Made by a program: the position numbers and the translations under genes | Part shown: piece by piece, positions 41,135-59,501 of the stretch | Layout of the letters: each line of letters opens with the position of its first letter | Numbering within the stretch: position 1 is the stretch's first letter | The notes under the pieces: generated by a model | Seen by the model: the letters and a program-made list of their open reading frames with translations, nothing else | The model's database searches: none | Told to the model about the DNA's origin: nothing | Source of the DNA: Armatimonadota bacterium | GTDB taxonomy: Bacteria; Armatimonadota; Fimbriimonadia; Fimbriimonadales; GBS-DC | NCBI GenBank assembly: GCA_037444405.1 | Contig: JBBIML010000012.1 | Span: 1-64,000, forward strand | Direction: 5' to 3' | DNA length: 64,000 bases

Positions 41135-41281
41135 AGTCTCCCATCTCGCATACAAAAGGGTGGGAAGCGAGGGCTTCCCATCTTTTTTATCAGGGGTGGC
41201 TCTGTTGCTTCTGGGAGCCTTTGCATGCTATAATTGTGTTCAGAATCGCTGGGGACATCTTTCAAAACAGAGAGGTGGAAC

Positions 41282-42589: not shown

Positions 42590-42725
42590 GCAACGCGACA
42601 GGGTGTTGCAATTTTCCGAAAAATTACGCAGGGAAGACCCTCCCGTGCTATGATAGTGCTGTGTATCACGGGAGGACACCATGCGATGCTATTCTGGGCG
42701 TTTGGCAGATCTCCATACGGAGGCA

Positions 42726-45700
42726 ATGAAGCGTACTCGCTTCAGCATGCTTGCTGTTATATCTGCGCAACTCCTTCTATGCCTCGTCGTGAACGGGTTC
42801 GCGCAGCAGAACCGCGAGGTCTATACCTACAACCTGACCTTCACCACCACCAACCAGTGCATGTGGCAACCGGGCACCTGCAACATTGGCTACTCCTACT
42901 TTCTGGGGGGTAGCTTCAACGGCTCGCGTTCGGGCGGCGGCTACTTCACCATTCCCGTGCTGGGCGAGTTCGGCGCATCGGGCGGTGCATCGGCGAGCGG
43001 TCGGCTCGGACTCCAGTTCGATGCCTACGCTACGGGCGGGGATGTGAGTGTCGTTTACCCGATGCAGCTGACTCTTTCCTTCCCCACCCGCGAGTACTTG
43101 GTACCCGGCGGGGTTGCCGTTATCCAGTCCAGCTACAGGCTCCAGCAGGGCGCGCGTCTTGGCACCACTTCGCCCACCGCGCGCTTTGTGATGTCGAGCG
43201 TGCTGGATTTTGCTGGCTCGTTCAGCGTCCGTGCGCGCGCCTTCAGCGAGGACATTATCAACACTTCGGTAGACATCCCGCGCGTGAACTATGTGCAGGA
43301 GCTGATCAACACGGACAATCTGAACATCTGGGATCGGGATTTCGATCTCATTTCGAACTATCCGGGATTGCTCACCCTGAATGTTCACCGCCCGTTGATT
43401 ATTACAGAAGGGGGCAACCCTTTTTCTCCGACGGAGACGCGCCTGACCTCCACTGGCAGCGACCGCTTTGTTACGCTCACAGGCGACCTGACCGCCGCGA
43501 CCATCTATCTGATCCAGACGCTGCTGGGGCTGCCGCCGAACAACTACCTGCGCAAGAGCATTTCGTATCCCGGGCTGGAGGCGGGCTATTCGCTGCTGCA
43601 GACGGAGGTTCGGACAGGACTGGGGTTCCGTCAGGACTTTGAGTTCGTGCCGCGCCCGAAAATCCGACTGACCTTCACGGATGGGCGCGCGCCCGTCGAG
43701 TTCTACGCGGGCGAAAGCGTCGCCATCCAGCTCCCCATGTCGGGCGCGCTGGGCGTGAACGCCTCCGTGGTCATGGACAACCAGTTCACCAACATCACCT
43801 ATCTGACCCTTTCGGGCGGCATCTACTTCCTGCCGCTCTATGTGTACGCCAGCGGGAAGCTGGGAAGCATCTCGCTGGGCAGCTTCGAGTTCAAGCCTGT
43901 GGACGAGATGGGCATCGGCAGCACCCTGCCCATCCGCATCTTCAATCGCACCTTTACGCTGAGCGGATTCGCCGATCAGGTAGCGGGCGACCTGACCGTG
44001 CGGGCGAACACCGACGCCACACCGGGCATCTTTTACAGCGTGAACTACAACAGCCCTACCTTCGCACGGGTGTACGACCCCAATACGACCATCTATCTGG
44101 AGTGCCGTCCCGTCAACTACTTCACCAGCCAGTCGCGGGTGGTGTTTCGGGGCACAGAAGTCAGCACGACGCTGGTGCAACCGAATGTGGTGAGCGCAGT
44201 CATCCCTGCCAGCCTGCTCACCACGATAGGCAACTACACGCTGTTTGTGCGCACGCCGGGCAAGCCCGACACGAACACCCTTGCATTCGCCGTTGGCTAC
44301 AGGCACCCTCTGATACGGCAGGTGCGATGCAACTGCCTGCCAGGACAGGATTACAGAGGCTACACCATCGGCGTCAATTTTCCAGAGAATGACCTGGTGC
44401 TGGACCTGACCACCACGAATCCGACTTACTATCGAAACGGTGTGACGGAGGTCTACTGGAACGATCAGGCAGTCACTATCGAGCAGATGGGGCTCGGGAG
44501 CGAGGATCCTACCCACTTCATGCGCATTCGGGTACCCAATCGGTATCTATGGCAGCCGGGCACGATGGTGCTGAAGGTCGTGAATAGGGGTCCGGGCGGC
44601 GGCGAAAGTATTTACAATATCTATGCTTCCTACCCGCCGCTTCAGTGGAATGAGGACTACGATTGCCGGCTGAATCCCCGCCGCGGGCGCTCCATCGGCA
44701 CGCAGGGCATCACGATTCGTGTGCGCGGAAGCTGGTTCATCAAGGGCGTCACCGAGCTGATTCTGGTGGAGGGTGCCGATTGGTACCCCCCAAATAACGC
44801 GATCCCTCTGCCCACCCAGTATGTGAGCCAGGCAGAGCTGGTGGGGCAGATTCCGGGCGACCTGATGCAGACGCCCCGTAGTGTGTTGATTGGGATGCGT
44901 CATCCCGACGGGCGTGGGGGCTACATCACTTCAGACGGTGGCGAGAGGTTTGAGGTGCTGAACCCGATCCCTGTCGTGGAGCGATGCGAACCGAATCTGG
45001 TCAATCGGGGCGATGCGCCGCCCAGCTATGTGGAGGTGCGCGGCGTGAGCTTCCGTCCTGGCTGTCAGGTCGTGTTCAACGGCGCGCCGCTGGCGACCAC
45101 GCGCCTTTCGGACACCCGCCTGCGCTTCACCCTGCCGGCGGGCACGATGAACACGGGGCGTGTGAACAGCGTGAAGGTGCGCAACCCGCAAACGGACGGC
45201 ATCGATTCCAACGAGGAATGGTTCACCGTGCGCAACCCCGCGCCCACGCTGACCGCACTCAACCCCAGCAGTGTTACTACCTTCGCGCCTGCGACGCGGG
45301 TGGACATCGCGGGCAGCGGCTTCGAAAACACGGCGCGTGCCTACTTTGGGGGCACGCCGGTGAGTACCACCTTTGTGAACACAACGCTTGTGCGCGCCCT
45401 CATCCCCGCCAGCCTGCTGCGGAATGCTGGCACCTTCTCCATCACCGTGCGCAACGAGCCGAGCGTCGACTCCAACGCGCTCCCCTTCACGATCAGCGAC
45501 GCGCGCCTCATCTATGTCAGCCCGCAGGGCAGCGACGCGAACGACGGACTGAGCTGGGCAACGGCAAAACGCACGGTGCAGGCGGGCATCAACGCTGCCG
45601 TGCCCTCCTCCGGCGGCGCGCAGGTGTGGGTCAAAGCGGGCCTCTACAATGAGCGCATCATCCTGCGAGCTAATGTGCATGTGTACGGCGGCTTCGCAGG

Positions 45701-48700
45701 CAACGAGACCAGCCGCAGCCAGCGCAACCTGTTCGCCAATGAGAGCGTCCTCGATGGGCAGTCGGGCGGTGCGGTGGTAACGGTGAACGCGGGCACGGTC
45801 AACGCCACCCTCGACGGCTTCACCCTGACCAACGGCAACCGCCCTGTCGGAGGCGCGGGCGTGCTGATTAATGGCGACTGTAGCGTGGTCGTGATTTCCA
45901 ACAACCTGATTATCAATAACCGCTCGCTGGATGTCTCAGGCAGCGGTGCGGGCATCCTGGTGCAGGGGACGAACCCGTTCGGCGCTGATGTGCAGATTCT
46001 CAACAATGTCATCGTGCGCAACGCCGCCTACAACAGCGCTGCCATCTACCTGCGCTACGCGAGCGCGCAACTCATCAACAACACCATCGCCTACAACACC
46101 AGTGTCAGCTCCACCACAGGCGCCGCGCTCTACTGCTCCGATAGCACCAGCACATTACTTGCCAACAACATCGTGGCGTTCCAGGGGAACGGTCCCGGCA
46201 TTGATCGCAAGAATGTGTCCACCGCGACGGTGACCCTGCGCAACAACTGCGTGTATAACCCGTCCACCGCGAACTACCGCAACATCGCCGCCAGCGCGTA
46301 CGCAAGCGACATCGCTGTGGATCCGCGCTTTGTGGACGCGAGCCACGATGACTTCCATCTGGGCGACTCGCCCTGCATCGATCGGGGCAGCGCGTCCGAC
46401 GCGGCAGGTATTCTGGTCGATTACGATGGGCAGGCGCGGGTGAACGGCGTTACCATCGATATCGGCGCAGATGAGGTGTACGCAGGCGCGGTTGTGCTGA
46501 CCGTGCCGCCCGCCACCGGCGCAATTCGCACCCCGGTGAACCTCACAGCGACCCTGCGACGAACCGATAACAACCTGCCGATTGCCGGTCAGCGGCTGGA
46601 GTTCTTCGTGCAGGACACCTCCATCGGCGCCGCCGACACCCAGAGCAACGGCACGGCGACGCTGAGCTACCTCCCGCCCGAATCGCTGGGCACAGGTGTG
46701 AAATCGCTGCGGGTGGAGTACGCGGGCAACACCGCCTATTTACCTGCCTCTCAGACAACCACGCTCACGGTGAATCGCGGCGTCTCCATTTTGACGCCCA
46801 TCATTGAGCCGACGCAGGTCTCGGTCTCGCAGCAGATGACGCTGGGCGGCAGGCTCTCGGACGCCACTGGCGCCCCGATTGCGAACCGCACGCTGAACAT
46901 CCTCTGGGACGGCGCTCCCATCGCCAGCGGCAACACCGACTCCAGCGGCGTCTTCCGCACCGCATACACCATCCCGCGCGGCACCTCACGAGGCAACCAC
47001 ACCGTGCGCGTGGAATTTCTGGGCGATCCCCTGTTCTTCGGCAATGTAGCCGCCAATACTGTATCCGTGGTCAACAGCGCGCCCGAAGCGTCCCTTGCTG
47101 GAGCGAACCTGCTGTTCAACGGCTCGAATACCGCCGTACAGTTTGACCACCGCCCCGAACTGAACGCCTATCCGCTCACGGTCTCCTGCTGGGTGCGCAC
47201 GCTGGACATGGCGGACCTCGAAGAACGCGGCATCGTCAACAAATATGGGAGTGGCTCGCTTAACGGCTACCAGCTATACCTGCGCAACGGGCGAGTGTAC
47301 GCATGGTACTTCCGCAACGGAAGCAACTACATCTGGGATGGCGGCTTGGGGCTGGATGGCGGGGCGATTGCCGACGGCGCGTGGCACCATATCCAGTTTA
47401 CGGTGGATGCCAGCGGCGGGCGGCTCTATGTGGATGGCGTGTTGCGCGCCAGCCGCGCGTGGACAGGTTCACCAGGCGCATGCACGACGACCACGCCGCT
47501 GCTGATCGGACGCTATCCCGGCACTCCGCTGAATGGGCACTTCGACGGCGAGATCGACGAGGTGAAACTCTGGAGCCGCGCCGATGTCGGAACCGATGAG
47601 AAGAGCCGTAAGGCGAACCTCGTCGGCGACGAGACCGGCTTGCTCGCCTATTTCCGATTCGATGAACGCTCTGGCAACCAGACTGTGGACGCCGTATCGG
47701 GTGGGGCGGCGACGCTCCTCAACACGCCCGTCTGGCAGACCTCCAGCGCGCCCGTAGAGACCCTCTATGTCGTGGACGGCGTGCCGCGCACAGTGCGCCT
47801 GAACGCTTACGACGCCAACGAGGACGCGCTGAGCTACAACCTGCTCACCACCCCTGGAAGCGGACAGTGGCTTGGCGGTGTATTCCCCAGCGCGACCTTC
47901 CTGCCTCCTTCTGGCGGCGTTTCAGGCGCGTTCAGCTATCGCGTCAGCGACGGGATTGCCAACAGCAACACAGCGTCGGGAGCCATTCAGCGCACGAATG
48001 CACCGCATGCCGGTCTGGGCGGCTCGATGCGCTACTTCAACGGCAACACCAACTCGAACATCACCGTGCCGGGCTTCGGCAATCGCGTTTCCAGCGGTGA
48101 GCTGACCATCGAGTTCTGGCAGCTTGTCGCCTCGCCCCGCTACGCCGCCACTATCGACATCAACGGCGGTTCTGCAACCAACCGCATCGTGGTGCATAGT
48201 CCCTGGAGTGATGGCAGGGTCTTCTTCGACTTCGGCAACATCACCACGCAGGGGCGACTTTACTACACGCCGCCCCAGCCAATCGTCGGCACCTGGCAGC
48301 ATTTCGCCTTCGTGGTGAGCCAGAGCGGGAACTACATGCGCATCTACCGCAACGGCGTTCTGGAAGCCCAGAAGACCGGCATGACTCCCTTCACCCCGGG
48401 CAACTACACGCTGGGGATTGGATTCGGAAACAGCGGTTTCGGGGGCTTTAATGGGTTCCTCGACGAGGTGCGCATCTGGAACCGTGCGCGCACCCAGCGT
48501 GAAATCCAGCGCGATATGCACGCGGTGCTGCAGGGCAACGAGCGCGGGCTGATCGGCTACTGGCGCCTCGATGAGTGGGGCAACAGTGCCACCACCGCCG
48601 TCGACTCGTCACCCAGTGGGGCGAACGGAACCTTCAGCAACGTGCGCTGGCTTGGCTCCACCGCGCCCCTTTACACGGTGCATGTGCCCGCTGGCGAGCG

Positions 48701-49076
48701 CACCTTCACGCTGGGCGCCTTCGCCGAATCTCTCACCCAGCCAGACCAGTTGACCTACCAGATCGTGGAGAACCCCGCCGACGGCACGCTGAACCTGTCG
48801 GGCAATCAGGCGACCTATACGCCCGATCAACCGGGCACCTACACCATGCGATACACCGTCAGCCATTCGGCAGCGGCTCTGAACACGGCGCGTGTATGGC
48901 TGGTGGTGCCGCGCGCGGGCGATGTGGACGGCAGCGGCTGCGTGGATGACGCCGACCTGCTCACGGTGTTGTTCGCCTTCGGCAGCGACAACCCTGACGC
49001 CGATGCGAACGGCGACGGACTCGTGGACGACGCCGACCTGCTAACGGTGCTGTTCAACTTCGGCAGCGGGTGCTGA
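42726..49076 (+). CDS. Large secreted multidomain adhesin-like protein (IPT/TIG, beta-helix, Ig-like, 2x LamG, dockerin-like tail)
   Basis: Signal peptide GFA-Q; NP.P.L..L.P IPT repeats; YVSPQGSDANDGLSWATAK; DIGADE; WHHI...LYVDG...FDGEIDEVKLW and WQHFAFV..FNGFLDEVRIWNRA; ends FNFGSGC. Alternative ATG at 42681. Confidence 0.88.
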   Translation: MKRTRFSMLAVISAQLLLCLVVNGFAQQNREVYTYNLTFTTTNQCMWQPGTCNIGYSYFLGGSFNGSRSGGGYFTIPVLGEFGASGGASASGRLGLQFDAYATGGDVSVVYPMQLTLSFPTREYLVPGGVAVIQSSYRLQQGARLGTTSPTARFVMSSVLDFAGSFSVRARAFSEDIINTSVDIPRVNYVQELINTDNLNIWDRDFDLISNYPGLLTLNVHRPLIITEGGNPFSPTETRLTSTGSDRFVTLTGDLTAATIYLIQTLLGLPPNNYLRKSISYPGLEAGYSLLQTEVRTGLGFRQDFEFVPRPKIRLTFTDGRAPVEFYAGESVAIQLPMSGALGVNASVVMDNQFTNITYLTLSGGIYFLPLYVYASGKLGSISLGSFEFKPVDEMGIGSTLPIRIFNRTFTLSGFADQVAGDLTVRANTDATPGIFYSVNYNSPTFARVYDPNTTIYLECRPVNYFTSQSRVVFRGTEVSTTLVQPNVVSAVIPASLLTTIGNYTLFVRTPGKPDTNTLAFAVGYRHPLIRQVRCNCLPGQDYRGYTIGVNFPENDLVLDLTTTNPTYYRNGVTEVYWNDQAVTIEQMGLGSEDPTHFMRIRVPNRYLWQPGTMVLKVVNRGPGGGESIYNIYASYPPLQWNEDYDCRLNPRRGRSIGTQGITIRVRGSWFIKGVTELILVEGADWYPPNNAIPLPTQYVSQAELVGQIPGDLMQTPRSVLIGMRHPDGRGGYITSDGGERFEVLNPIPVVERCEPNLVNRGDAPPSYVEVRGVSFRPGCQVVFNGAPLATTRLSDTRLRFTLPAGTMNTGRVNSVKVRNPQTDGIDSNEEWFTVRNPAPTLTALNPSSVTTFAPATRVDIAGSGFENTARAYFGGTPVSTTFVNTTLVRALIPASLLRNAGTFSITVRNEPSVDSNALPFTISDARLIYVSPQGSDANDGLSWATAKRTVQAGINAAVPSSGGAQVWVKAGLYNERIILRANVHVYGGFAGNETSRSQRNLFANESVLDGQSGGAVVTVNAGTVNATLDGFTLTNGNRPVGGAGVLINGDCSVVVISNNLIINNRSLDVSGSGAGILVQGTNPFGADVQILNNVIVRNAAYNSAAIYLRYASAQLINNTIAYNTSVSSTTGAALYCSDSTSTLLANNIVAFQGNGPGIDRKNVSTATVTLRNNCVYNPSTANYRNIAASAYASDIAVDPRFVDASHDDFHLGDSPCIDRGSASDAAGILVDYDGQARVNGVTIDIGADEVYAGAVVLTVPPATGAIRTPVNLTATLRRTDNNLPIAGQRLEFFVQDTSIGAADTQSNGTATLSYLPPESLGTGVKSLRVEYAGNTAYLPASQTTTLTVNRGVSILTPIIEPTQVSVSQQMTLGGRLSDATGAPIANRTLNILWDGAPIASGNTDSSGVFRTAYTIPRGTSRGNHTVRVEFLGDPLFFGNVAANTVSVVNSAPEASLAGANLLFNGSNTAVQFDHRPELNAYPLTVSCWVRTLDMADLEERGIVNKYGSGSLNGYQLYLRNGRVYAWYFRNGSNYIWDGGLGLDGGAIADGAWHHIQFTVDASGGRLYVDGVLRASRAWTGSPGACTTTTPLLIGRYPGTPLNGHFDGEIDEVKLWSRADVGTDEKSRKANLVGDETGLLAYFRFDERSGNQTVDAVSGGAATLLNTPVWQTSSAPVETLYVVDGVPRTVRLNAYDANEDALSYNLLTTPGSGQWLGGVFPSATFLPPSGGVSGAFSYRVSDGIANSNTASGAIQRTNAPHAGLGGSMRYFNGNTNSNITVPGFGNRVSSGELTIEFWQLVASPRYAATIDINGGSATNRIVVHSPWSDGRVFFDFGNITTQGRLYYTPPQPIVGTWQHFAFVVSQSGNYMRIYRNGVLEAQKTGMTPFTPGNYTLGIGFGNSGFGGFNGFLDEVRIWNRARTQREIQRDMHAVLQGNERGLIGYWRLDEWGNSATTAVDSSPSGANGTFSNVRWLGSTAPLYTVHVPAGERTFTLGAFAESLTQPDQLTYQIVENPADGTLNLSGNQATYTPDQPGTYTMRYTVSHSAAALNTARVWLVVPRAGDVDGSGCVDDADLLTVLFAFGSDNPDADANGDGLVDDADLLTVLFNFGSGC

Positions 49077-50378
49077 AAACGCCTGCAGTTCGCCCTTTGC
49101 CCAGTTGTACCACCATGGCATGCCGTGCGGAGCGAGCATGACATGGATCTGCTGGAGGCGCAGCCACCAGTGCTGCGCCTCCGTATACAAACCGCACTGA
49201 CACAGCACCCGAATCCAGATGAGCGCTTTGTTGATGCGCTGCTGAACGCCCTGCTCTTCAGGGTCCGCCAGTGAGGGGTTATCGGTGAGCAGTTGGAGCG
49301 CCTGCTCGCTCTGACCCAGATTGGCCAGCACCAGCGCGTCCGAGAGAAGGATGTTGGGGTCACCATCGCGCCATGGGTCGCTTTTGCGTCGGGCGATAGT
49401 GTGGGTCTCCACTGCCTCGTGGCGATGGCGTGAGAAGCTCAGGTACTCCGCACTGTTGCGCCAGAACCATGCGGCATGTTCAGGTGCGCACTGTTCCGCC
49501 GCGCAAAGCCAGCGCCGAAGGATGGTCACCCCTTCCAGCGGAATCATGCGCGGGTTGCATTCCGCTGCGCCTTTCGCCTGCGCATGCACGATATAGAACC
49601 AGTGGGGGCGCAGGGGTTCCGATCGGGGAATCAGGCGCAGGGCACGCTGAACGGATAGCTGCGCCTCATGCACCCGCGCCTGCTCCACCAGATAGCGGCA
49701 GTGATAGGCAAAGGCATCGATCAGCAGGCTCTTCGGGGCGCGGTTCACGCTCACCATCTGCCACAGACGCCCCTGAACACAGCGATAGAGCAGGTCGGTC
49801 ATCGCGGGGTCAATCGAGAGCCGGTCGGTTTTGACCGCTTCCAGCAGTTCTTCCATCTCGGCGGCGGACGCCACCTCGAAGGGCAACCAGGTCAGCACGC
49901 CGCGCCCGTTTTGAAGCGCATGATGCTCCGCCTCGCTCGCGCCCAGCACGGTGCACAGGCGTCCTAACTGCTCGTCGGAGGGCCAGCTCTCGGAACGCTC
50001 CCAGCGACTGACCGTGCTGACCGTCACGCCCACATGCAGGGCGACCTGTTCGAGTGTCCAGCCGCGCCGTCCCCGCAGCGCTCGCAACAGCTCGCCCCCA
50101 ATCGGGGCAGCGCCTGACGGCGAAGGCATACCTTCTCTTACCCCCACTGCCATCGGGGTCGCGCGAGGGGCATCCAGAAGTTGCCACGCCTGCGCACACT
50201 CGGTCTCAGTAGCCTGCAACGCGGTCAACACCGCCCGCAGCTCATAGACGCGCGGAGTAGTCGCTCCCGCTTCCCAGCGGCTCAGGGTGGAAGCATTCAC
50301 TCTGGCAGCACGCGCCAGCTGACGCAGCGACAGTCCCCGTGAGGCACGCATGCGACGCAAATGCTCTGCCAAAAACAC
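49041..50378 (-). CDS. XRE regulator HTH-HTH-TPR-like (paralog 3)
   Basis: LRRMRASRGLSLRQLA..STLSRWEAG, LDAPRA, GELLRALRGRRGWTLEQ..RWERSESWPS. GTG 50378 follows GAGGTG and TGTGGTATAAT. Confidence 0.83.
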   Translation of the reverse strand: MFLAEHLRRMRASRGLSLRQLARAARVNASTLSRWEAGATTPRVYELRAVLTALQATETECAQAWQLLDAPRATPMAVGVREGMPSPSGAAPIGGELLRALRGRRGWTLEQVALHVGVTVSTVSRWERSESWPSDEQLGRLCTVLGASEAEHHALQNGRGVLTWLPFEVASAAEMEELLEAVKTDRLSIDPAMTDLLYRCVQGRLWQMVSVNRAPKSLLIDAFAYHCRYLVEQARVHEAQLSVQRALRLIPRSEPLRPHWFYIVHAQAKGAAECNPRMIPLEGVTILRRWLCAAEQCAPEHAAWFWRNSAEYLSFSRHRHEAVETHTIARRKSDPWRDGDPNILLSDALVLANLGQSEQALQLLTDNPSLADPEEQGVQQRINKALIWIRVLCQCGLYTEAQHWWLRLQQIHVMLAPHGMPWWYNWAKGELQAFSAPAAEVEQHR

Positions 50379-50484
50379 ACCCCAACACCTCATCGACATT
50401 ATACCACAGGTCAGTTCAAAAATGCTCTTGAGAAACCCCTGATGCAGGGAACCATCGGTAAACGCGCAGGGTATAATAGATGTG

Positions 50485-50889
50485 ATGCCGTTGCACAGCA
50501 GGCACTGGTGGCGCATCGCGCTCTGGATGCTGATGGGCTGGCTGGGACTGGCACCGCTCAGCTGGCTGGCTGTGCATTCGTGCGACTGCTACCGACCTGC
50601 TCGCACCCACGCATGCTGTGCGTCATCCCCTGCAACGGGGCAGGCAGTCCCTGCGCCCCATCCGCGCAGCGATTGCCCGCATTGCCAGCTCTGTCAGGCA
50701 AGCCATCCGAACCCTGCCGTGCTGACGGGCGGGACGAATCTGCCGGACCAGAGCTTCACTCTACTGATGCCCCCGTTGCCGATGCAGGTGGTGGTACAAC
50801 CCACCCGCACCCCGCTTTATCACCCACCGATTCAACCCCTCATTCAGACCGCTTTCGAATGCTGGGCGCCGCGCGCCCCTCCTGTGTGA
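50485..50889 (+). CDS. DUF2946/CutF/CruR-like uORF with Cys motifs and C-terminal RAPP arrest motif
   Basis: Hydrophobic N-terminus, HSCDC, HACC, CPHCQLC, Pro-rich tail ending WAPRAPPV*. TATAAT lies 7 nt before the ATG. Confidence 0.75.
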   Translation: MPLHSRHWWRIALWMLMGWLGLAPLSWLAVHSCDCYRPARTHACCASSPATGQAVPAPHPRSDCPHCQLCQASHPNPAVLTGGTNLPDQSFTLLMPPLPMQVVVQPTRTPLYHPPIQPLIQTAFECWAPRAPPV

Positions 50890-50991
50890 GCATATAATCG
50901 CATCTGTCATCACCGCATCCTGCGGCGATGCGATTCGTTCACCTGAGTTTCACGCTCGTGAGACGAGCGCAGACAATCATCACACAGGAGG
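50878..50991 (+). promoter_or_regulatory. Anti-SD/SD pairing (translational attenuator)
   Basis: CCTCCTGTGTGA (50878-50889) is the exact reverse complement of TCACACAGGAGG (50980-50991), which holds the SD of the next gene. Confidence 0.75.
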
Positions 50992-51000
50992 AGATGAGCC

Positions 51001-51555
51001 ATGCAAAAAGCGATCTATGGGGCGCTGCTGAGCGCCGGAATGGTGCTGGTTTTAACGGGTCTGATGACCGCTCAACCGAAGCAGGAGCTTCGCACCGTCG
51101 CTATCCGGGTTGGCGGGCTGCACTGCGAGGGCTGTGTGGAGCCTGTGGTGAAGGGGCTTCAGCAGGTGCGGGGCGTGCAGTCAGCCCAGCTCGATTTTAA
51201 GACGGCGACGGCGATTGTGCGCTACGACGAGGCGCAGGTTGCCCTCTCGCAGGTCGTGCTGGCGTTGCCCAAAATCCCGCACGCGATGGGACCCAGCTCC
51301 CGAATGCGCTATTCGGGTCAGCTCGCGCTGAACCTGCAGAAAGGTGACGCGCAGAAAGTCGCGCGGGCTTTGCAGAAGGTCGCCGGCGTGCAGAAGGTCA
51401 CGGTCAACAAAAATACCCTGCTGATTCAGTTCAAGCCGAACGCTTCGGTGCGCTATGCGCAGCTGGAGCAGGCACTGAAAAAGGCAGGGGGCACGCTGGC
51501 ACCCGTGCAGGCAGCTGGCGAGCAACACCAGCACAACCATGAGCATCATCATTAA
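51001..51555 (+). CDS. Exported heavy-metal-associated (HMA) domain protein
   Basis: Signal-like N-terminus, GLHCEGC, second degenerate HMA fold, His-rich tail. Confidence 0.82.
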   Translation: MQKAIYGALLSAGMVLVLTGLMTAQPKQELRTVAIRVGGLHCEGCVEPVVKGLQQVRGVQSAQLDFKTATAIVRYDEAQVALSQVVLALPKIPHAMGPSSRMRYSGQLALNLQKGDAQKVARALQKVAGVQKVTVNKNTLLIQFKPNASVRYAQLEQALKKAGGTLAPVQAAGEQHQHNHEHHH

Positions 51556-51614
51556 AGCCAGAGCAGGGGCAGTGTCTTCACAGGGGGCACTGTCCCTGCT
51601 GGAGGGAATAAACA

Positions 51615-53726
51615 ATGGGGCACTCACACCCTCACCATCATCGGGTTCATACGCCAGCGCCGCTGCCTGACCATCGTGAGCATCGCGAGTCGGCTCATGA
51701 CCAGCATGCGGGGCACACCATCGCGATGTTCCGCAATCGCTTCATCGTCTGCTCCGTGCTGACCATTCCGATTCTCATCTGGAGCGAGAGCATTCAGCAG
51801 TGGCTGGGCTTTCGGGCGCCGCGCTTTACAGGCAGCGATGCCGTTGTGCCCCTGTTGAGTGCGGCGGTCTTTCTCTATGGTGGAACCCCCTTTTTGCAGG
51901 GCGCGGTGCGCGAATGGCGTGCCCGCATACCGGGCATGATGACGCTGATCGCGCTGGCAATCAGCGTGGCGTTCGGGTACAGCCTCGCCACCACGCTGGG
52001 GCTGCGGGGCATGCCCTTCTACTGGGAGCTGGCGACCCTGATCGATGTGATGTTGCTGGGACACTGGCTGGAGATGGCAGCAATCGGCAGGGCGTCGCAG
52101 GCGCTGGAGCATCTGGTCGCACTGTTGCCCCCGCAGGCGCATCTGCTGCGCGGGGAGCAGGTGGTGGATGTACCGCTGGAGGCGGTGCAGGTGGGCGACC
52201 GCGTGCTGGTGCGCACGGGCGAGCAGGTGCCCGTGGACGGTGTGGTGCTGGAGGGGGTTTCCAGCGTGAACGAGGCGTTTCTGACGGGCGAATCGCGCCC
52301 TGTGCCCAAACAGCCAGGCGATGAGGTCGTGGCTGGCTCCATCAATCTGGAGGGGCGGCTGATTGTGGAGGCGCGGCGCGTGGGCACCGCCACCACACTC
52401 CACCAGCTAATGCGACTGGTAGAAGAGGCGCAGCACACACGCAGTCGCTTCCAGGTGCTGGGCGATCGGCTCGCCTTCTGGCTCACCGTGGTCGCGCTGC
52501 TGATGGCAGCGGGAGCAGGCATCGCGTGGCATCTCAGCGGTGTCGACTGGCAGTTCACGCTCGCCCGCGCTGTTACCGTGCTGGTTATCGCCTGCCCGCA
52601 CGCGCTGGGGCTGGCAATCCCGCTCATTCTGGTTCAAGCAACGGGGCGCGCCGCCCGCAACGGCATTCTGATTCGCAATCGTGAAGCCATCGAGCGCGCC
52701 CGCACCATTCAGGTGGTCGCGTTCGATAAGACGGGCACGCTCACGGAAGGGCGGTTCGCTGTTACGGGCATCTGGGTTGCAGGGATGGAAGAAACGACTG
52801 CCCTGCAAATCGCAGCGACGCTGGAGCAAAACACGAGCCATCCGCTGGCGCAGGCTCTGCTCGAAGCAGCCCAGGAGCGCGGCATCCTGCCCAGCAGGCT
52901 GGACGAGTTCCAAACCGCGCCCGGCAAGGGTGTGGAAGGGCGTATTGACGGTGCGCTTTACCGACTGGGACGCCCCGAATGGCTCGCGGAACTCGGCATT
53001 GAACAAACGCCAGCCCTTCAGACAGCTCTGGCACATGCCGAACAGCACGGCGAAACAACCATCGTGCTGTTCAACACGAACGGGGCGCAGGCAGCGTTCA
53101 CGCTCGCGGACCGCGTTCGCTCGGGTGCAAAAGAGGTTGTTGCGGCGCTCCATGCGATGGGCATTCAGGTCGTGATGATCACAGGCGACGCCGAAGCAGT
53201 GGCACGCACTGTCGCCGAGCAACTTCAGGTCGATACTTACTACGCACGGGTGCTGCCCGATCAGAAGGCGAACATTGTGCGCCAGATTCGCGAGGGGGGT
53301 CAGCGGGTTGCCTTTGTGGGCGATGGCATCAACGATGCACCTGCCCTGCTCGCCGCCGATATCGGCTTCGCCATCGGTGCGGGCACGAATGTCGCTATCG
53401 AATCCGCTGATGTGGTGCTGGTTGAGAACGACCCGCGCGATGTGGTCTTCTTCCTGCGACTGGCACGACTGGGCTACACCAAAATGGTGCAGAACCTGTT
53501 CTGGGCAACGGGCTACAACCTGATTGCCCTGCCCCTGGCGGCGGGTGTGGCGGCGCGCTGGGGGCTACTGCTCTCACCCGCAGTGGGCGCACTGCTGATG
53601 AGCCTGTCGACGGTGATTGTCGCGATAAACGCGCTCCTGCTCCGCCGCGCAAGGCTCGATAACGGCGAAGCCACTCCACATCAGCATAGCCATACAACTC
53701 ACGCTACAGGAGGGAAACAGCTATGA
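51615..53726 (+). CDS. copB: P1B-type copper-transporting ATPase (CopB type)
   Basis: His-rich N-terminus, TGES, CPHALG, DKTGT, GDGINDAP, YN..., MSLST. Confidence 0.9.
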   Translation: MGHSHPHHHRVHTPAPLPDHREHRESAHDQHAGHTIAMFRNRFIVCSVLTIPILIWSESIQQWLGFRAPRFTGSDAVVPLLSAAVFLYGGTPFLQGAVREWRARIPGMMTLIALAISVAFGYSLATTLGLRGMPFYWELATLIDVMLLGHWLEMAAIGRASQALEHLVALLPPQAHLLRGEQVVDVPLEAVQVGDRVLVRTGEQVPVDGVVLEGVSSVNEAFLTGESRPVPKQPGDEVVAGSINLEGRLIVEARRVGTATTLHQLMRLVEEAQHTRSRFQVLGDRLAFWLTVVALLMAAGAGIAWHLSGVDWQFTLARAVTVLVIACPHALGLAIPLILVQATGRAARNGILIRNREAIERARTIQVVAFDKTGTLTEGRFAVTGIWVAGMEETTALQIAATLEQNTSHPLAQALLEAAQERGILPSRLDEFQTAPGKGVEGRIDGALYRLGRPEWLAELGIEQTPALQTALAHAEQHGETTIVLFNTNGAQAAFTLADRVRSGAKEVVAALHAMGIQVVMITGDAEAVARTVAEQLQVDTYYARVLPDQKANIVRQIREGGQRVAFVGDGINDAPALLAADIGFAIGAGTNVAIESADVVLVENDPRDVVFFLRLARLGYTKMVQNLFWATGYNLIALPLAAGVAARWGLLLSPAVGALLMSLSTVIVAINALLLRRARLDNGEATPHQHSHTTHATGGKQL

Positions 53727-55444
53727 AAAAATGGTTCCCGATTCTCAGCAGCCTTATTCTGCTGGCAGGACTCACATGGGGCACATGGTGGGTTGTGCAG
53801 ACAAAGCGCCCGCCGGGTGCGATGACCCCCTTGGAGGCGCAGGGGATGGATATGACGGTCATGAAACCCCCGCGCGGCGCGTTCCCTGTAAGCACGGAAG
53901 AGGTGCAACCGCGCCCGTTCCTGCCCTCCGTCGCCTATCCCGCCACCTTCCGCGCCTACAACGAGGAGGTTCTCCGCGCCCGCATCACGGGCAAATTGAT
54001 GGGGACCCGTGTCTATCCCGGCGACCGCGTGCAACCGGGTCAGTTGCTGGCGCTGATTGAGCCAGAGGAGTATCAGGCGCTGGCACAGGGCGCTGAAGGT
54101 GGGCTGCAGATGGCACTGGCAGAGCAGAGGGAAGCCCTCTCGATGGTGCAGGAAGCCAACGCGGCGCTTCAGGCGGCGAAAGCGCGCTTCCAGCAAGCAC
54201 AGGCGGAAGTGGACGAAGCCCAGCAGATGCTCCGCGCCGCCGGCGCCGAGTTGCGAACGGCTCAGGCGCAACTGGAACAGATGGAAACCGAGATTCGGGC
54301 GGCGCGCGCAGAAGTGGAGTTCTGGCAGGCGGAATCGGAGCGCCAGAACGCCCTGTTGCAGAAAGGCTTCGTGTCGAAACGCGACGCCCAGGCAGCGGAG
54401 ACACGCCTCAAGCAAGCGCGTGAGAGCCTGCAGGCAGCACAGGCAGCCTACCGTTCGCAACAGTCGCGGGTTGAGCAGTTGCAGGCGAATCGCGAGGCGA
54501 TGCGCGCCCGTGTGCAACGCGCCCAATCAGCACTCGATGCCGCTGAGCGTGAAGTTCAATCCGCAACGGCTCGCCAGCAAGCCGCCCAGGCGCGGCTCCA
54601 GCGCGCGCAAGCACAAATCCAAGCCGAGCAGGGCAAAACCCGCGCCGCTCAGCTGCAGGTTGCCTACACCCGCATCGTTGCGCTCAACCCGGGCGTCATC
54701 ACCGAACGCCTCACTGAGCCGGGCACCCTGGTTCAACCCGGCACGCCCATCTTCCGTCTGCAGAACACTACCCGGATTCGGGTTCAGGCGAAGGTCGCCG
54801 AACAGGACGCCGCCCGAATCCGCGTTGGATACCCCGTCTGGATTCGGCGCTACGCCGAGCCGAACCGTGTCTACACGGCGCGCGTGAGCGCCATCTTCCG
54901 CGAAGCGGAACCGAACACCCGCACAATGATTGTGGAAGCCATCCTGCCCAACCCCGACGGGCGCCTCAGCGTGGGTGAATACGCCGAAATGCGGATCGGG
55001 CTGCGTGGCGATTCCCGTCGCGCGCTCACCGTGCCCCAGCGCGCTATCCAGCACGACGAACATCAGCGCCCCTATGTGTGGGTGGTGGAAAAAGTGCATC
55101 GCCACACCAATCAGCCCACCACCTACTACTGCACGATGCACCCGCAGATAGAGCGAAACGAACCCGGAATCTGCCCCATCTGCAAGATGGAGCTGGTTCC
55201 CAAAGAGCAACCTGCCGACTATATCGCACGCCGACGCTATGTGAAAGTGGGACTCTCCGACGGCGAGCGCACCGAGATTCTGGACGGACTCAAGGCGGGC
55301 GACCAGGTGATTGTGTTTGGCTATGCGAGCCTGGTAGAGGGCGATCCCGTGTTCCCCACCGAATGGACCGCACGGGGACCCCGCCAGATTAACCCGCCCC
55401 AGTTCCAGCCATCTACCCCTTCACACGGAGGGCATGGACATTGA
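53723..55444 (+). CDS. RND efflux periplasmic adaptor (CusB-like) with metal-binding domain
   Basis: Lipoyl-like motifs, long coiled coil, YYCTMHPQI....PGICPICKMEL. Confidence 0.88.
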   Translation: MKKWFPILSSLILLAGLTWGTWWVVQTKRPPGAMTPLEAQGMDMTVMKPPRGAFPVSTEEVQPRPFLPSVAYPATFRAYNEEVLRARITGKLMGTRVYPGDRVQPGQLLALIEPEEYQALAQGAEGGLQMALAEQREALSMVQEANAALQAAKARFQQAQAEVDEAQQMLRAAGAELRTAQAQLEQMETEIRAARAEVEFWQAESERQNALLQKGFVSKRDAQAAETRLKQARESLQAAQAAYRSQQSRVEQLQANREAMRARVQRAQSALDAAEREVQSATARQQAAQARLQRAQAQIQAEQGKTRAAQLQVAYTRIVALNPGVITERLTEPGTLVQPGTPIFRLQNTTRIRVQAKVAEQDAARIRVGYPVWIRRYAEPNRVYTARVSAIFREAEPNTRTMIVEAILPNPDGRLSVGEYAEMRIGLRGDSRRALTVPQRAIQHDEHQRPYVWVVEKVHRHTNQPTTYYCTMHPQIERNEPGICPICKMELVPKEQPADYIARRRYVKVGLSDGERTEILDGLKAGDQVIVFGYASLVEGDPVFPTEWTARGPRQINPPQFQPSTPSHGGHGH

Positions 55445-55470: not shown

Positions 55471-55908
55471 CTATTGCGTGTCGAGCTGGTTCAGAAACTG
55501 CTGCACGCTCACGACCTGAATGCCGAACTCTGCCATTTTCTGAATCAGCTCGAGGTCGCGCTTGAGATCGTCATCGCGCGTAACAAGGTACTCCGCGCCA
55601 CCCTTGATGGCGGTCTCCAGAAACATGTTATCGTGCGGGTCGCGGCAGAGGTTTATTTCGCCTTGAATTTCCACCCACACGGCTCGCGCTTTGAGCAGGT
55701 TCATCAGTTCTTGCACAAGGTCTGGATGATAAGACATTCTTCGCATCAATCGTGGGCGCATCAGAACCTGCCAAAGTTCGTCCAGAAGCGGCTGGCTCAC
55801 CACCACGAGGAACTGCGCTTTCCGAAAGGCTTCCATAACCAGAGCGGGCGCGCCGTGAGGGTTCAGTACCGCCGATACCCAGACATTCGTATCGATCACG
55901 GCACGCAT
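55471..55908 (-). CDS. PIN-domain toxin (TIGR00305-like)
   Basis: MRAVIDTNVWVSA, CRDPHDNMFLE.A, YLVTRDDDL. Confidence 0.88.
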   Translation of the reverse strand: MRAVIDTNVWVSAVLNPHGAPALVMEAFRKAQFLVVVSQPLLDELWQVLMRPRLMRRMSYHPDLVQELMNLLKARAVWVEIQGEINLCRDPHDNMFLETAIKGGAEYLVTRDDDLKRDLELIQKMAEFGIQVVSVQQFLNQLDTQ

Positions 55909-56156
55909 CGCTGGCGATATTCTTCGTACGCCGCGGTAATCTCGGCTTCGATGTCTTCGGGAGGCTGGTACTGGGAAGCTCGACGGAACGCCTGGAGCAA
56001 CTGCTCCATGCGCTTCTGCCAGTCTTCCTCGGTAAGTTGCAGCCAGCGGCTAACGATCTCGCGAGCCAGCGCTTCAGGGCTGACCTGCCGACACTCTGCA
56101 AGGTACTGCAGGCGCTGCCAATCGGTCTCGCTCAAATCGATGTTCAAGGTTGCCAT
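55896..56156 (-). CDS. Putative antitoxin (ribbon-helix-helix-like)
   Basis: Small ORF overlapping the toxin start; ATLNIDLSE..W.RL..LA. Confidence 0.7.
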   Translation of the reverse strand: MATLNIDLSETDWQRLQYLAECRQVSPEALAREIVSRWLQLTEEDWQKRMEQLLQAFRRASQYQPPEDIEAEITAAYEEYRQRCVP

Positions 56157-56186: not shown

Positions 56187-59100
56187 ATGAGTCAGCGCGG
56201 GTTCAATCTGATCGAGTGGAGTGTAAAGCATCCGTCGGCGGTGCTGGCGTTTTATACCGCTGTGATCGTGCTGGCAATCTGGGCGGTGGTCGCCTATCTA
56301 CCGCGCCGGATGATGCCCTACATCGAAAGCCCCCAGATCGGCATCGTGACGCGCATGCCCGGCTTGAGCGCCGAAGATATGGAGACCTACTACACCAAGC
56401 CCATCGAGCAGCGTATGACCGCGATCGCAGGCGTGCGCTACATCCGCAGCACAACCCAGGACGGCTACAGCATCGTGGTGCTGGAGTTCCCCTACGGCAC
56501 GGATATGCAGAAAAAACTTACCGAGGTTCAGGCGCTTATGACCATTACGCAGGACGATCTGCCGATGCAAGGCGCCAACGCCCAGCCCTCGTGGGTACTG
56601 CAGATTGACCCGCTGAACCTGCCCGTGCTGACCCTTGCCGTAACGGGCGACTCGCGCTGGACCCTCGCCCGCATGCGTGAAGTGCTGGAGAACGAGATTG
56701 CCGACCGCATCAAGCGCACCAGCGGTGACATCTACACCGTCTCGGTGTTCGGCGGCTACCGGCGCCAGATTCAGGTGATTGTGGACCGCAACAAACTCAC
56801 CGCCTACGGTCTTTCCATTCTGGATGTGCAACGCGCCGTCGATTCGTTCAACCTCGCCGCGCCTGCAGGACGACTCACAGCGGACGCCTACGAAGAGATT
56901 GTGCGTCTCGATACGCTCGCTCGCAACGCCCAGGAAGTGGCGAACTATCCCCTGAAAGCCGTCGGCGACCGTGTGGTATATATCCGCGATGTCGCCCGTG
57001 TGATTGATACCTACGACGAAAAACGCAGTGGCTACTTCCATCAGTGGCAACAGGGCGGCAAGTGGCAGGTGAATGAAGCCATCGCCGTCAATGTGCTACA
57101 GAACCCATGGGCAAGTTCCCCACGCGTGATTGAGGCGGTGATGAAGGAGCTCGAAGCCATCGAGCGCGACTACCCTGGCTTGAAGTTCCGTGTCGCCTAC
57201 AATAACGCCGAGTTTGTGGATGTCTTGTTGCGTAATCTCTGGGAAGAGCTGCTCGTGGCGGTACTGCTTGCAGGGCTGGTAGTGTGGCTCTTTCTGGGCG
57301 AATGGCGCATGACGCTGATTGCGCTCACGGCTATCCCGACCTCGATGGCGATGGCGATTCTCGCGCTGGTGCCGATGAACATGAGTCTCAACTCCAGCAC
57401 GCTGATCGGGCTGTTGTTCGGCATCGGGCGCCTGGTGGACGATGCGATTATTGACCTGCATGCGGTGCGCCGCCATATGCGCATGGGCAAAGACCCTGTG
57501 CAGGCAACCGTGGACGGCATCACGGAAGTGCGCCGCTCGGTGGCTGCCAGCACGCTGATGATAGTGATTGCGCTCACGCCCCTGCTATTTGCCGGGGGCA
57601 TCGTGGAGCAGATGTTCGTGGGGCTGGTGTGGCCGCTGATTTTCGGGCTGCTGGCGTCGTTTCTGGTCTCGATGACACTCACCGCGACGCTCGCGTCGCG
57701 CCTTCTGCATGGCATTTCCGATCAGCCGACGCGCATTGAGCGGTGGCTCATCCAACCGTTCCAGCGTGGGCTGGACAGGCTGGAGAACGGCTATACGCGT
57801 CTCATTCGCTGGCTCTTGCATCATCGGTTCGTAAATATGATGAGTATTCTGGCGACGCTGGCAGTGGGGTTCGGCTTCTATTACTTCATCGGCAGTGAGA
57901 TGATGCCGCTGGGTGATATTGGGCAAGCCTACCTGCGTCTGGAGATGCAGCCGGGCACTTCTTACGCCGCGACGGAACGCGCCGTGCGCCAGCTCCAGCA
58001 AATTATCCAGAAGTATCCTGAAATTCGCCATGTGTCGTGGGAGGTGGGCGCGGAGGGCGGTCCGGGCTACTACGAGGGCGCCTACTTCACAGGCTACGCC
58101 TCCATGCGCGAGAACACCGCGACCGCCATGATAACCCTCACCTCCAAAGACGAGCGCAGGCGCGACATCTGGCAGATTATCGACGCGATTCAGGCAGAGG
58201 CAACCGCCACCATCCCTGGTATCCGCCTGCTCCAGATTAAGGAGATGGGCGTGGATGTGATGGCGACCGCTGCCGCGCCCATCCAGATTCTCGTCTACGG
58301 ACCCGATTTTGAGCTGACCAGCCGCCTGGCAGAAGAGAGCCTGCGGATTGCGAAGGCGCAGGTCCCCGACCTGTTCCAGCCCGGCACCTCGTGGACGATG
58401 AATCGCCCCCTCTGGCGGTTGCGCATCGACCTGACCAAAGCGGCGCAGATGGGTTTCACACCCGAAGAGATTGCCCGTCAGGCGTTCTACGCGCTTAAAG
58501 GGGGCTATACTCAGCAGTTCTATCGCTTCCCGGAGCATGCGGACCGCCGCCAGACGACTATCCTCATCCGCTACGAAGAGTCGCAGCGCCTGCACCCTGC
58601 TGATCTGGAACAGTTGATGCTGGTGAACGCGCGCGGGGAGAGCGTGCCGCTGAAGGCGGTGGCGCGGGTGGAGTATACAGTTACGCCGACACTGATTGAG
58701 CGCGATGGGCTACGCCGCGTGGTCAGCCTGATGGGCTATTACCGCAAGGGCGACTATCAGCCACCGCGCCTTGATACAGATGGCGACGGTCAGGCGGATA
58801 CGGCTTTGTTTGACCTCCCGCATCCGCCACGCCCGTCGATGGATGTGGCGATGGATGTGATGATGAAAGCGATGGCGCAGGTCAATTGGCCCCCGCGCGA
58901 ATACGGCATGGAAGTACGCGGCGATATGACCCAGATGATGGATTCATTCCGGCGGATGATGATGGGCTTTCTGGTGGCGCTGCTGCTGATGTATCTAGTG
59001 CTGGTGGCGCAGTTTGGGGGCTTTTTGCAGCCGTTGCAGATGATTTTCAGCCTGCCGCTGGAACTGTCGGGCGTGTTTATCTTTCTGTGGCTGATGAAGC

Positions 59101-59501
59101 AAGCGTTCAGCACGGTGTCGTTGCTTGGCATTATCGTGCTGACGGGAATGGACATCACCGCCGCGATATTGATGATTGACCTGATTCTGGTGTTGCGGGC
59201 GCAGGGCATACCGCGCGATGAGGCGGTGGTGCAGGGTTGTGTGGACCGCTTACGCCCCATTCTGATGACGGTCATGGTCACCATCGCTGCGCTGGCGCCC
59301 GTCGCTTTCTTCCCGAAGATGGGCACCGACGCCTACCAGCCGCTGGCGACTGCGGTGATCGGCGGGCTGCTGATGGGCACAGTGCTGACCCTTATCGATA
59401 TCCCGATTATGCACACGCTGGTGGATGACCTGCTGCGCTGGCTGCGACGCGAGCGTCCCGAACCAGCCATCGGTTTACAAAATCCGCATGATGGGGTATA
59501 A
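56187..59501 (+). CDS. RND efflux permease (AcrB/CusA superfamily)
   Basis: PG.SAE.ME...T.PIE, LVDDAI, RLRPILMT, PLATAVIGG. ATG 56187 follows AGGAGG. Confidence 0.9.
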   Translation: MSQRGFNLIEWSVKHPSAVLAFYTAVIVLAIWAVVAYLPRRMMPYIESPQIGIVTRMPGLSAEDMETYYTKPIEQRMTAIAGVRYIRSTTQDGYSIVVLEFPYGTDMQKKLTEVQALMTITQDDLPMQGANAQPSWVLQIDPLNLPVLTLAVTGDSRWTLARMREVLENEIADRIKRTSGDIYTVSVFGGYRRQIQVIVDRNKLTAYGLSILDVQRAVDSFNLAAPAGRLTADAYEEIVRLDTLARNAQEVANYPLKAVGDRVVYIRDVARVIDTYDEKRSGYFHQWQQGGKWQVNEAIAVNVLQNPWASSPRVIEAVMKELEAIERDYPGLKFRVAYNNAEFVDVLLRNLWEELLVAVLLAGLVVWLFLGEWRMTLIALTAIPTSMAMAILALVPMNMSLNSSTLIGLLFGIGRLVDDAIIDLHAVRRHMRMGKDPVQATVDGITEVRRSVAASTLMIVIALTPLLFAGGIVEQMFVGLVWPLIFGLLASFLVSMTLTATLASRLLHGISDQPTRIERWLIQPFQRGLDRLENGYTRLIRWLLHHRFVNMMSILATLAVGFGFYYFIGSEMMPLGDIGQAYLRLEMQPGTSYAATERAVRQLQQIIQKYPEIRHVSWEVGAEGGPGYYEGAYFTGYASMRENTATAMITLTSKDERRRDIWQIIDAIQAEATATIPGIRLLQIKEMGVDVMATAAAPIQILVYGPDFELTSRLAEESLRIAKAQVPDLFQPGTSWTMNRPLWRLRIDLTKAAQMGFTPEEIARQAFYALKGGYTQQFYRFPEHADRRQTTILIRYEESQRLHPADLEQLMLVNARGESVPLKAVARVEYTVTPTLIERDGLRRVVSLMGYYRKGDYQPPRLDTDGDGQADTALFDLPHPPRPSMDVAMDVMMKAMAQVNWPPREYGMEVRGDMTQMMDSFRRMMMGFLVALLLMYLVLVAQFGGFLQPLQMIFSLPLELSGVFIFLWLMKQAFSTVSLLGIIVLTGMDITAAILMIDLILVLRAQGIPRDEAVVQGCVDRLRPILMTVMVTIAALAPVAFFPKMGTDAYQPLATAVIGGLLMGTVLTLIDIPIMHTLVDDLLRWLRRERPEPAIGLQNPHDGV

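Follow-up and report, generated by a model that had tools for sequence, protein, structure and literature searches.

A leader peptide ending in RAPP whose arrest codons complement the Shine-Dalgarno region of a secreted HMA gene: a candidate metal-responsive arrest switch in a Fimbriimonadales bacterium

The window, the whole 64,000-nucleotide stretch analyzed here (positions 1 to 64,000 of contig JBBIML010000012.1, assembly GCA_037444405.1), comes from a Fimbriimonadales bacterium, and on its forward strand an upstream open reading frame (uORF) for a leader peptide precedes the gene of a secreted HMA-domain protein, behind which lie genes for a copper ATPase (copB) and for the adaptor and permease of an RND system. 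The leader ends in RAPP, Val and a stop codon, and its final codons are the exact complement of the Shine-Dalgarno (SD) region of the HMA gene. Sequence comparison establishes a conserved ORF, an invariant RAPP motif, a fixed spacing between this motif and a Cys motif upstream of it, a selected and covarying helix over the SD, and targets of metal type. We consider it reasonably likely that the locus is a metal-responsive arrest switch of the SecM/CutF type, whose direction we leave open; within this reading, the coupling of arrest to an opening of the HMA SD appears very likely from the sequences, and metal is a likely signal.

The uORF, as defined by the ORF list, the alignment of homologs and an AlphaFold model, occupies 50485..50889 (+) and encodes 134 residues from its ATG, or 135 from a GTG at 50482. 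An earlier note on this DNA had described an ORF with an export-like N-terminus, Cys motifs and a RAPPV-stop ending, and this description holds. In order, the peptide comprises a basic N-terminus, a hydrophobic helix (signal peptide or anchor), CxC, CC, CxxCxxC, a Pro-rich linker and the RAPPV-stop; Cys residues lie at positions 33, 35, 44, 45, 64, 67, 70 and 126, seven of which form the cluster of CxC, CC and CxxCxxC. The N-terminus has a mean Kyte-Doolittle hydropathy of 1.78 over 15 residues, is modeled as a helix (residues 4-31) and may be a Sec/SPI signal peptide. This helix is the only one in the AlphaFold model, the remainder lacking secondary structure at low confidence (predicted template modeling score, pTM, 0.30), and the geometry of the Cys site was not obtained from it. 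Scans of the protein against Pfam and NCBIfam assigned no family, and Rfam models gave no match to 50000-52000 at E up to 1. Overlapping ORFs at 50361-50897 and 50416-50610 were set aside as presumed shadows, because the RAPP frame is the one that homologs keep. The leader differs from that of locus L001 by 10 synonymous to 13 non-synonymous changes, too few to weigh. The RAPP codons (R130-P133, 50872..50883, +), followed by Val and the stop, are predicted, by analogy with ApdA, ApdP and CruR, to stall the ribosome when Pro132 occupies the P site and Pro133 the A site; RAPP peptides are reported to stall with their two Pro codons in these sites (PMC12992588).

A search with a 14-row profile of the leader finds matches in all 29 genomes of the host's family, one to three per genome. 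Among 55 distinct matching frames, 48 have RAPP 1-6 residues ahead of the stop; the other seven are five weak matches from other families, one truncated copy (L088) and one frame at a contig end. The target gene is readable for 45 of the 48: 21 encode prepilin/DUF1559 proteins, 17 secreted CxxC proteins of ~226 residues, six secreted HMA proteins and one a YHS/YtkA protein (three further HMA-class leaders stand outside these counts), and all four classes carry an N-terminal export signal together with Cys motifs. The unpublished genome G054 is not among the grounds of any claim made here.

In 39 aligned leaders, whose mean column identity is 31%, C35, C44, C45, C64 and the RAPP motif are invariant, as the earlier note would have RAPP be among orthologs, and C67 and C70 are conserved at 90% or more. 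In all 46 leaders that allow the measurement, 57-62 residues separate the last CxxC from RAPP (59 in the window), whereas the distances among the upstream Cys groups vary widely. We infer that a chain of 59 residues spans the ribosome tunnel plus the translocon, so that the Cys cluster would lie beyond the membrane at the moment when the ribosome translates RAPP. The motif itself is rare in the host, occurring twice in the 620,887 residues of its long ORFs as compared with 14 times for AAPP, which agrees with the avoidance of RAPP in proteomes reported in PMC12992588. In CruR, the spacing of CxxC to RAPP is functional (PMC9426467).

The second line of evidence is in the RNA. The last 12 nt of the uORF, the Pro-Pro-Val-stop codons (50878..50889, +), form an anti-SD arm that pairs perfectly, as the earlier note had it, with an SD arm at 50980..50991 (+), which holds AGGAGG 9 nt 5' of the HMA ATG at 51001. 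The arms are separated by a 90-nt loop, within an intergenic gap of 111 nt. None of the 1512 long ORFs of the host genome has an exact reverse complement of its last 12 nt within 300 nt downstream. When 50860-51020 is folded, the long helix is present in both the minimum free energy and the centroid structure (z -2.47; 2 of 200 shuffles are equally good). The two internal hairpins that had been proposed were located at 50908..50930 (+), where 4 close homologs show a single compensatory G-C/A-U pair, and at 50953..50969 (+), the second in the centroid fold only. The duplex energy of -24.3 kcal/mol is matched in 2 of the 83 pairs of genes with a GGAGG SD that served as controls, this count and that of the long ORFs being from a gene set picked crudely by length and composition, and masking of the ribosome footprint lowers the opening energy of the ribosome-binding site (RBS) from 14.9 to 9.1 kcal/mol.

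Across the family the same arrangement recurs. The duplex between RAPP region and target RBS is -19 kcal/mol or better in 44/45 loci, with a median of -26.2 as compared with -16.1 for the controls (n=83). Any Pro-Pro is coded by CCNCC, which pairs with GGAGG, so that the five-base core CCNCC/GGAGG is expected of every such peptide, a point that tells against the reading; pairing beyond the core was therefore examined. Of all Pro codons in the genome, 12% are CCT, and in the HMA, prepilin and YHS classes this codon is used at the first Pro in 21/28 leaders and at the second in 26/28; the ~226-residue class has mostly non-CCT Pro codons and pairs in a shifted register. Of 333 genomic SDs, 25 have ACA ahead of the GGAGG; in the 24 distinct arm pairs, by comparison, positions 6, 7 and 8 of the helix are paired in 20, 19 and 16 cases, and several kinds of pair occur at positions 9-12. 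Outside the SD core, 4.75 of 7 positions are paired between cognate arms versus 3.81 when arms are swapped, a value not attained in any of 10,000 permutations; this result is overstated because kin are not independent. In 11 prepilin-class loci (11 of 12 rows, L034 being omitted because it is poorly aligned) the consensus fold has the three-helix layout of the window, and 8 of its 25 pairs show double changes; the hairpins analogous to hairpins 1 and 2 of the window covary, the second with a three-state compensatory pair. Finally, masking of the ribosome footprint lowers the median RBS opening energy from 16.5 to 7.6 kcal/mol, with a drop of at least 4 in 43/45 loci; opening energy is used here in place of the SD unpaired probability after masking, which is noisy.

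Taken together, these comparisons suggest the following sequence of events. A probably leaderless mRNA would be translated into a nascent exported peptide. A ribosome halted with Pro codons in its P and A sites would cover the anti-SD arm, so that the long helix is blocked and the HMA SD is free; because the arrest codons are themselves the anti-SD, a stalled ribosome would have to open the helix. When a ribosome instead runs through to termination, the two internal hairpins would bring the arms together and the SD would close. The Cys cluster, at its distance of 59 residues from RAPP, would be the sensor that sets the lifetime of the stall during export. A metal signal is proposed because of the Cys cluster and of the HMA, P1B-3, heavy-metal-binding domain (HMBD) and YHS targets, and the likeliest one would be extracytoplasmic Cu (or Ag), lengthening the stall as in CutF. 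This CutF logic fits best because the operon is for export; that Cu prolongs the stall at this particular locus is, by analogy, a tentative suggestion on which our judgment is almost evenly divided. The adaptor would follow through translational coupling, and copB and the RND gene through polarity or mRNA stability. In this scheme the stalling, the export, the ligand, the direction and the effects past the first gene are what we infer.

Several findings weigh against this reading. For most leaders (38 of 45) the gene that follows encodes a prepilin/DUF1559 protein or the ~226-residue protein, which is predicted to be a beta-barrel, and neither has a known copper role; even among the leader-HMA loci, copB lies behind the HMA gene in only 5/9. 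RAPP by itself is insufficient for arrest (PMC12992588), and the leader at G007:C7:180-581 (L120) has CAPP in place of RAPP with both helix arms intact, owing either to a natural loss of arrest or to an error of assembly. The duplex of L013 is weak (-9.4) and shows no drop in opening energy, as is also the case for L072. With the footprint masked, the SD of the window has an unpaired probability of 0.58 (the family mostly 0.1-0.6) and is still partly re-paired in the model. The covariation of anti-SD and SD for which the earlier note had called is found across the family and in the 11 prepilin-class loci; it is absent among the four closest HMA-class loci, which are uninformative on this point, as 11 of the 12 pairs of the long helix are invariant there and 90 of 500 shuffles reach the score. 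A Cys-bearing MerR-family regulator is also encoded elsewhere in the genome (G000:C11:66563-67216).

The element resembles several known systems, of which the nearest in design is CutF of the Rhodobacter capsulatus cutFOG operon (PMC9973294, bioRxiv 2025.02.05.636593), a small exported Cys leader with a Pro-rich C-terminal stall and a stem-loop that masks the SD of the copper-detoxification gene behind it and is proposed to melt on stalling. In its length, the place of its PP and the gap to the next gene (134 residues, PP at 132-133, 111 nt), the present leader fits the rule set of PMC9973294 for CutF-like proteins. CutF differs in having CxxxC, an EF-P-dependent PPP stall and a stem-loop described as intergenic, whereas the leader of the window has RAPP, seven clustered Cys residues, Pro-Pro-X codons as the anti-SD and a secreted HMA target; the likeness is one of design, and sequence homology is not among its grounds. 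CruR (Bp2923) of Bordetella pertussis (PMC9426467) is likewise alike: a DUF2946 (PF11162) protein of ~140 residues with an export signal, a CxxC motif and RAPP at its C-terminus, it is the first gene of a copper-related operon, its spacing of CxxC to RAPP is conserved, and its arrest has been demonstrated (PMC12992588). It differs in that the spacing in DUF2946 is 45 plus or minus 1-2, as compared with 57-62 here, and in that it controls an uptake operon by way of Rho-dependent termination, with Cu relieving the stall. The earlier note had likened the uORF to the DUF2946 type. The leader is outside DUF2946, as judged from profile and spacing: PF11162 gives no match to the leader protein at E up to 1 and matches only 2 of 39 homologs, weakly (best E 0.011). 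Two weak PF11162 matches elsewhere in the host genome are out-of-frame noise, and a genome-wide PF11162 search misses this locus. A cluster with 23% DUF2946 (score 0.95) among the feature neighbors of the leader is a lead only.

A third likeness is to the RAPP/RGPP uORFs of Fujiwara et al. 2025 (PMC12992588) and to SecM, ApdA and ApdP. The RAPP/RGPP uORFs, which occur in many phyla, are small secretory proteins with a C-terminal RAPP that lie before metal genes; for seven from Streptomyces, arrest has been demonstrated. Their downstream-gene table includes RND adaptors (620), CusA/CzcA (50) and DUF1559 proteins (112). They differ in that the 30 downstream classes listed are without a secreted HMA protein, and an anti-SD analysis was not found in the portions of that paper drawn on. 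CutF-like leaders are in addition known from Bacteroidota and other phyla and before RND efflux genes (PMC9973294), and with these and the cases in PMC12992588, an example outside Proteobacteria before an efflux operon, as the earlier note saw it, has precedents. Within the order itself, an arrest peptide from Fimbriimonadales that belongs to the RQH (RAPP-like) family and is encoded upstream of secA was found to stall Bacillus subtilis ribosomes in vitro (bioRxiv 2023.09.02.556018; PMC10987492). A full-text search of the literature found no paper on the present leader family, a weak negative in that the supplements of PMC12992588 and PMC9973294 were searched in part, and no Armatimonadota entry was found in the arrest-leader papers and the searchable parts of their supplements.

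Because copB stands behind only 5/9 of the HMA genes and most targets have no known role, CruR logic and a redox or export signal are to be weighed beside the CutF logic. In the first of these, which is a sub-case of the metal switch and not additional to it, the sign is opposite: the default stall would keep the gene on, and metal binding or folding of the Cys cluster would free the chain and turn it off, the targets serving metal acquisition or delivery to exported cuproproteins, with polarity that Rho (encoded in the host genome) could add. RAPP arrest is intrinsic, and in CruR it is Cu that relieves it (PMC9426467); the beta-barrel target resembles the KdgM/NanC porins, which would suit uptake, and copB is missing behind the HMA gene in 4/9 loci. 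The P1B-3 ATPase and RND system downstream of the present leader are normally exporters, however, and the intergenic region is wholly structured around the SD helix, as in cutF-cutO, so that we regard this version as unlikely, though the best placed of the alternatives.

In the second, which we hold to be slightly less probable again, the leader would sense the thiol-disulfide state or the capacity for export and not metal, with oxidative folding of the Cys residues or pulling by Sec releasing the stall and thereby tuning the production of exported Cys proteins. The export signals and Cys motifs of all four target classes are what this would predict, the CutF model itself invokes disulfides (bioRxiv 2025.02.05.636593), and RAPP leaders are known before DsbA/thioredoxin genes (PMC12992588). 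Nevertheless, the targets here are HMA, HMBD, YHS and P1B-3 proteins rather than sec, yidC or dsb genes, and the host genome has no match to DsbB (VKOR was not searched for).

Transcription of the leader probably starts close to its ATG. A candidate -10 promoter element of the GG-TATAAT type, assigned from its position and from comparison of homologs, lies at 50469..50477 (+), 7 nt 5' of the ATG, and such an element is found 5-8 nt upstream of the start in 30 of 45 non-truncated leaders; in the host genome the GG prefix is present on 46 of 65 such -10 elements ahead of leaderless-like ORFs. An element so near the start suggests a leaderless mRNA. A second TATAAT, at 50893-50898, is three bases past the uORF stop, is kept in 4/4 of the closest HMA-class loci, and is without the GG prefix typical of the -10 elements of this genome. 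Diverging from the promoter of the leader is a gene for a double-helix-turn-helix (XRE) protein at 49041-50396 (-); it and a paralog at 41234-42589 (+), both of ~450 residues, flank the gene of a 2131-residue secreted protein (42681-49076).

These promoter elements bear on the weakest alternative, in which the helix merely couples HMA translation to traffic on the uORF without a regulated stall, the peptide being a small secreted metal chelator and control being transcriptional, by a MerR-type factor at the upstream promoter or by an internal promoter at 50893-50898 that yields a transcript lacking the anti-SD: the conserved TATAAT after the stop, the Cys-bearing MerR-family protein on C11 and the three paralogous HMA genes in merA/merT-type operons that have no leader speak for it, but we think it improbable, as the internal hexamer is preceded by CA (in the window) or TA, a prefix that occurs at none of the 65 leaderless-like promoters, most of which carry GG, a search for a sigma-70 site came out negative, and a plain chelator needs no invariant, proteome-avoided RAPP at a fixed distance.

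No CsoR, CueR or CopY gene is adjacent to the locus, as had been noted before, CsoR has no match in the host genome (98.9% complete), and one weak BlaI/CopY-family match lies away from the locus. The MerR-family protein on C11 is fused to a C-terminal CxxC thioredoxin-like domain. Secreted HMA proteins number 12 matches in the host's family, nine with a leader and three without; the operons of these three we take to be of the merA/merT type from their Pfam matches or translations. The stretch G000:C9:177281-180399 (-) comprises a regulator, a mercuric-reductase-like gene, a MerT-HMA fusion and an HMA paralog 54% identical, with no leader; the regulator is presumably ArsR-like, on the same kind of reading.

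The gene predicted to be directly controlled (51001..51555, +) encodes a secreted HMA-domain protein with an HCEGC motif and a His-rich tail (PF00403, E 3.7e-17), whose matches to CopZ/MerP-like NCBIfam models are below cut-off. The copB gene (51615..53726, +), whose SD lies 59 nt past the HMA stop, encodes a P1B-3 (CopB-type) copper ATPase (TIGR01511, 580 bits, over cut-off) with CPH, YN, MSLST and a His-rich N-terminus, the P1B-3 signature of PMC5552934. Its stop is overlapped by the start of the gene for the RND periplasmic adaptor, which has an HMBD (53723..55444, +; TIGR01730, PF16576, PF19335). The RND permease of the AcrB/CusA superfamily (56187..59501, +, start approximate; PF00873, E 1.1e-184; below cut-off for the CusA/CzcA model TIGR00914) has its own SD. 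Between adaptor and permease lie, on the opposite strand, a PIN-domain gene and a small partner gene (55471..56156, -; PF13470, E 4.3e-23; the partner without clear family), and HMA, copB and the RND genes thus do not form the continuous unit that the earlier note had assumed. The pair is presumably a toxin-antitoxin pair, judging from the Pfam match. Its probable -10 element abuts the permease SD, and locus L002 has a PIN-like ORF at the same place.

The earlier proposal that a stalled ribosome frees the whole of HMA-copB-RND therefore stands in part. The helix covers the SD of the HMA gene and no other; because copB and the RND gene have SDs of their own and the RND gene lies beyond the antisense gene pair, any control of these two would be indirect. 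The helix would thus act directly on the HMA gene and on the later genes at most indirectly.

The copB DNA (51693-53900) is 92.9% identical to L121:2591-4801 of a genome (G011) from a different genus; the leader and HMA gene there, unlike copB, do not align with those of the window by blastn, and the adaptor gene of a same-genus genome is 76% identical. From these comparisons, the copB-RND block looks to have been recently exchanged behind lineage-specific leaders. Sequencing runs contain only 6-7% of the words, and four of them, contigs of a ~92% identical relative, span copB to RND and miss the leader, so that they bear neither on expression nor on habitat.

Beyond the window, the host genome carries a second leader, at G000:C18:11854-12246 (-) (L034), before a prepilin/DUF1559 gene. 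This locus has a 12-bp anti-SD helix with a different extension, and its target has a C-terminal Cys motif; of the many prepilin/DUF1559 paralogs in the genome, the one closest to this target (C29, 56%) is without such a leader. The beta-barrel protein with its N-terminal CxxC is found behind a RAPP leader at L058:2086-2766 and 16 related loci; its predicted structure has about 12 strands, with KdgM/NanC porins as the nearest folds (predicted local distance difference test, pLDDT, 65), and tblastn did not find the gene in the host genome. At L081:2015-2860 and L082 this gene has an in-frame N-terminal extra stretch of ~55 codons resembling an inserted palindromic repeat, and several intergenic regions of the class are extended by short hairpin repeats with the helix arms preserved. 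In genome G008 (L013:1983-2263), leader and HMA gene are separated by an ORF of 13 codons that has an SD of its own.

In a sample of the class there are six weak matches outside the host's family, of which two, L106 and L109 in a neighboring family, are genuine related RAPP leaders, placed before YHS-type genes. In a sample of the phylum (301 genomes, including hardly any member of the host's family) only G284 matches strongly beyond the host genome; of eight other weak matches, five pass a local profile search, and none of these has the RAPP ending. Searched against 1.84 billion representatives, the profile finds 41 proteins, which are Armatimonadota-like together with a few RAPP proteins of Bacteroidota.

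The mechanism, and with it the concept, is already known from CutF, CruR and SecM; novelty lies in the leader family, its 59-residue spacing, the use of arrest codons as an anti-SD with countable covariation, and the target set. That the locus is a lineage-specific variant of the CutF/CruR kind is well supported by sequence comparison. With ~50 leaders and countable support for the helix, the family offers a clean comparative case, in which synonymous changes of the Pro codons would separate the RNA switch from the peptide stall. It also makes testable two questions left open by PMC12992588, namely whether RAPP arrest acts on non-Sec genes and by what mechanism. A wider proposal, which we consider doubtful, is that the host's family, whose sampled genome is without CsoR, has in these leaders its main sensor of envelope copper, with arrest codons serving as the anti-SD, a CxxCxxC ~59 residues from the stall that monitors conditions across the membrane, and a regulon to which the small CxxC-tipped beta-barrel and one particular prepilin/DUF1559 protein, among the many in each genome, belong. 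If this were true, these two would be unrecognized metal-handling proteins, the pilin-like DUF1559 proteins would gain a first functional handle, and the direction of switching might differ between paralogous leaders. In any case, two uncharacterized families of exported proteins are tied by their leaders to a probable metal signal.

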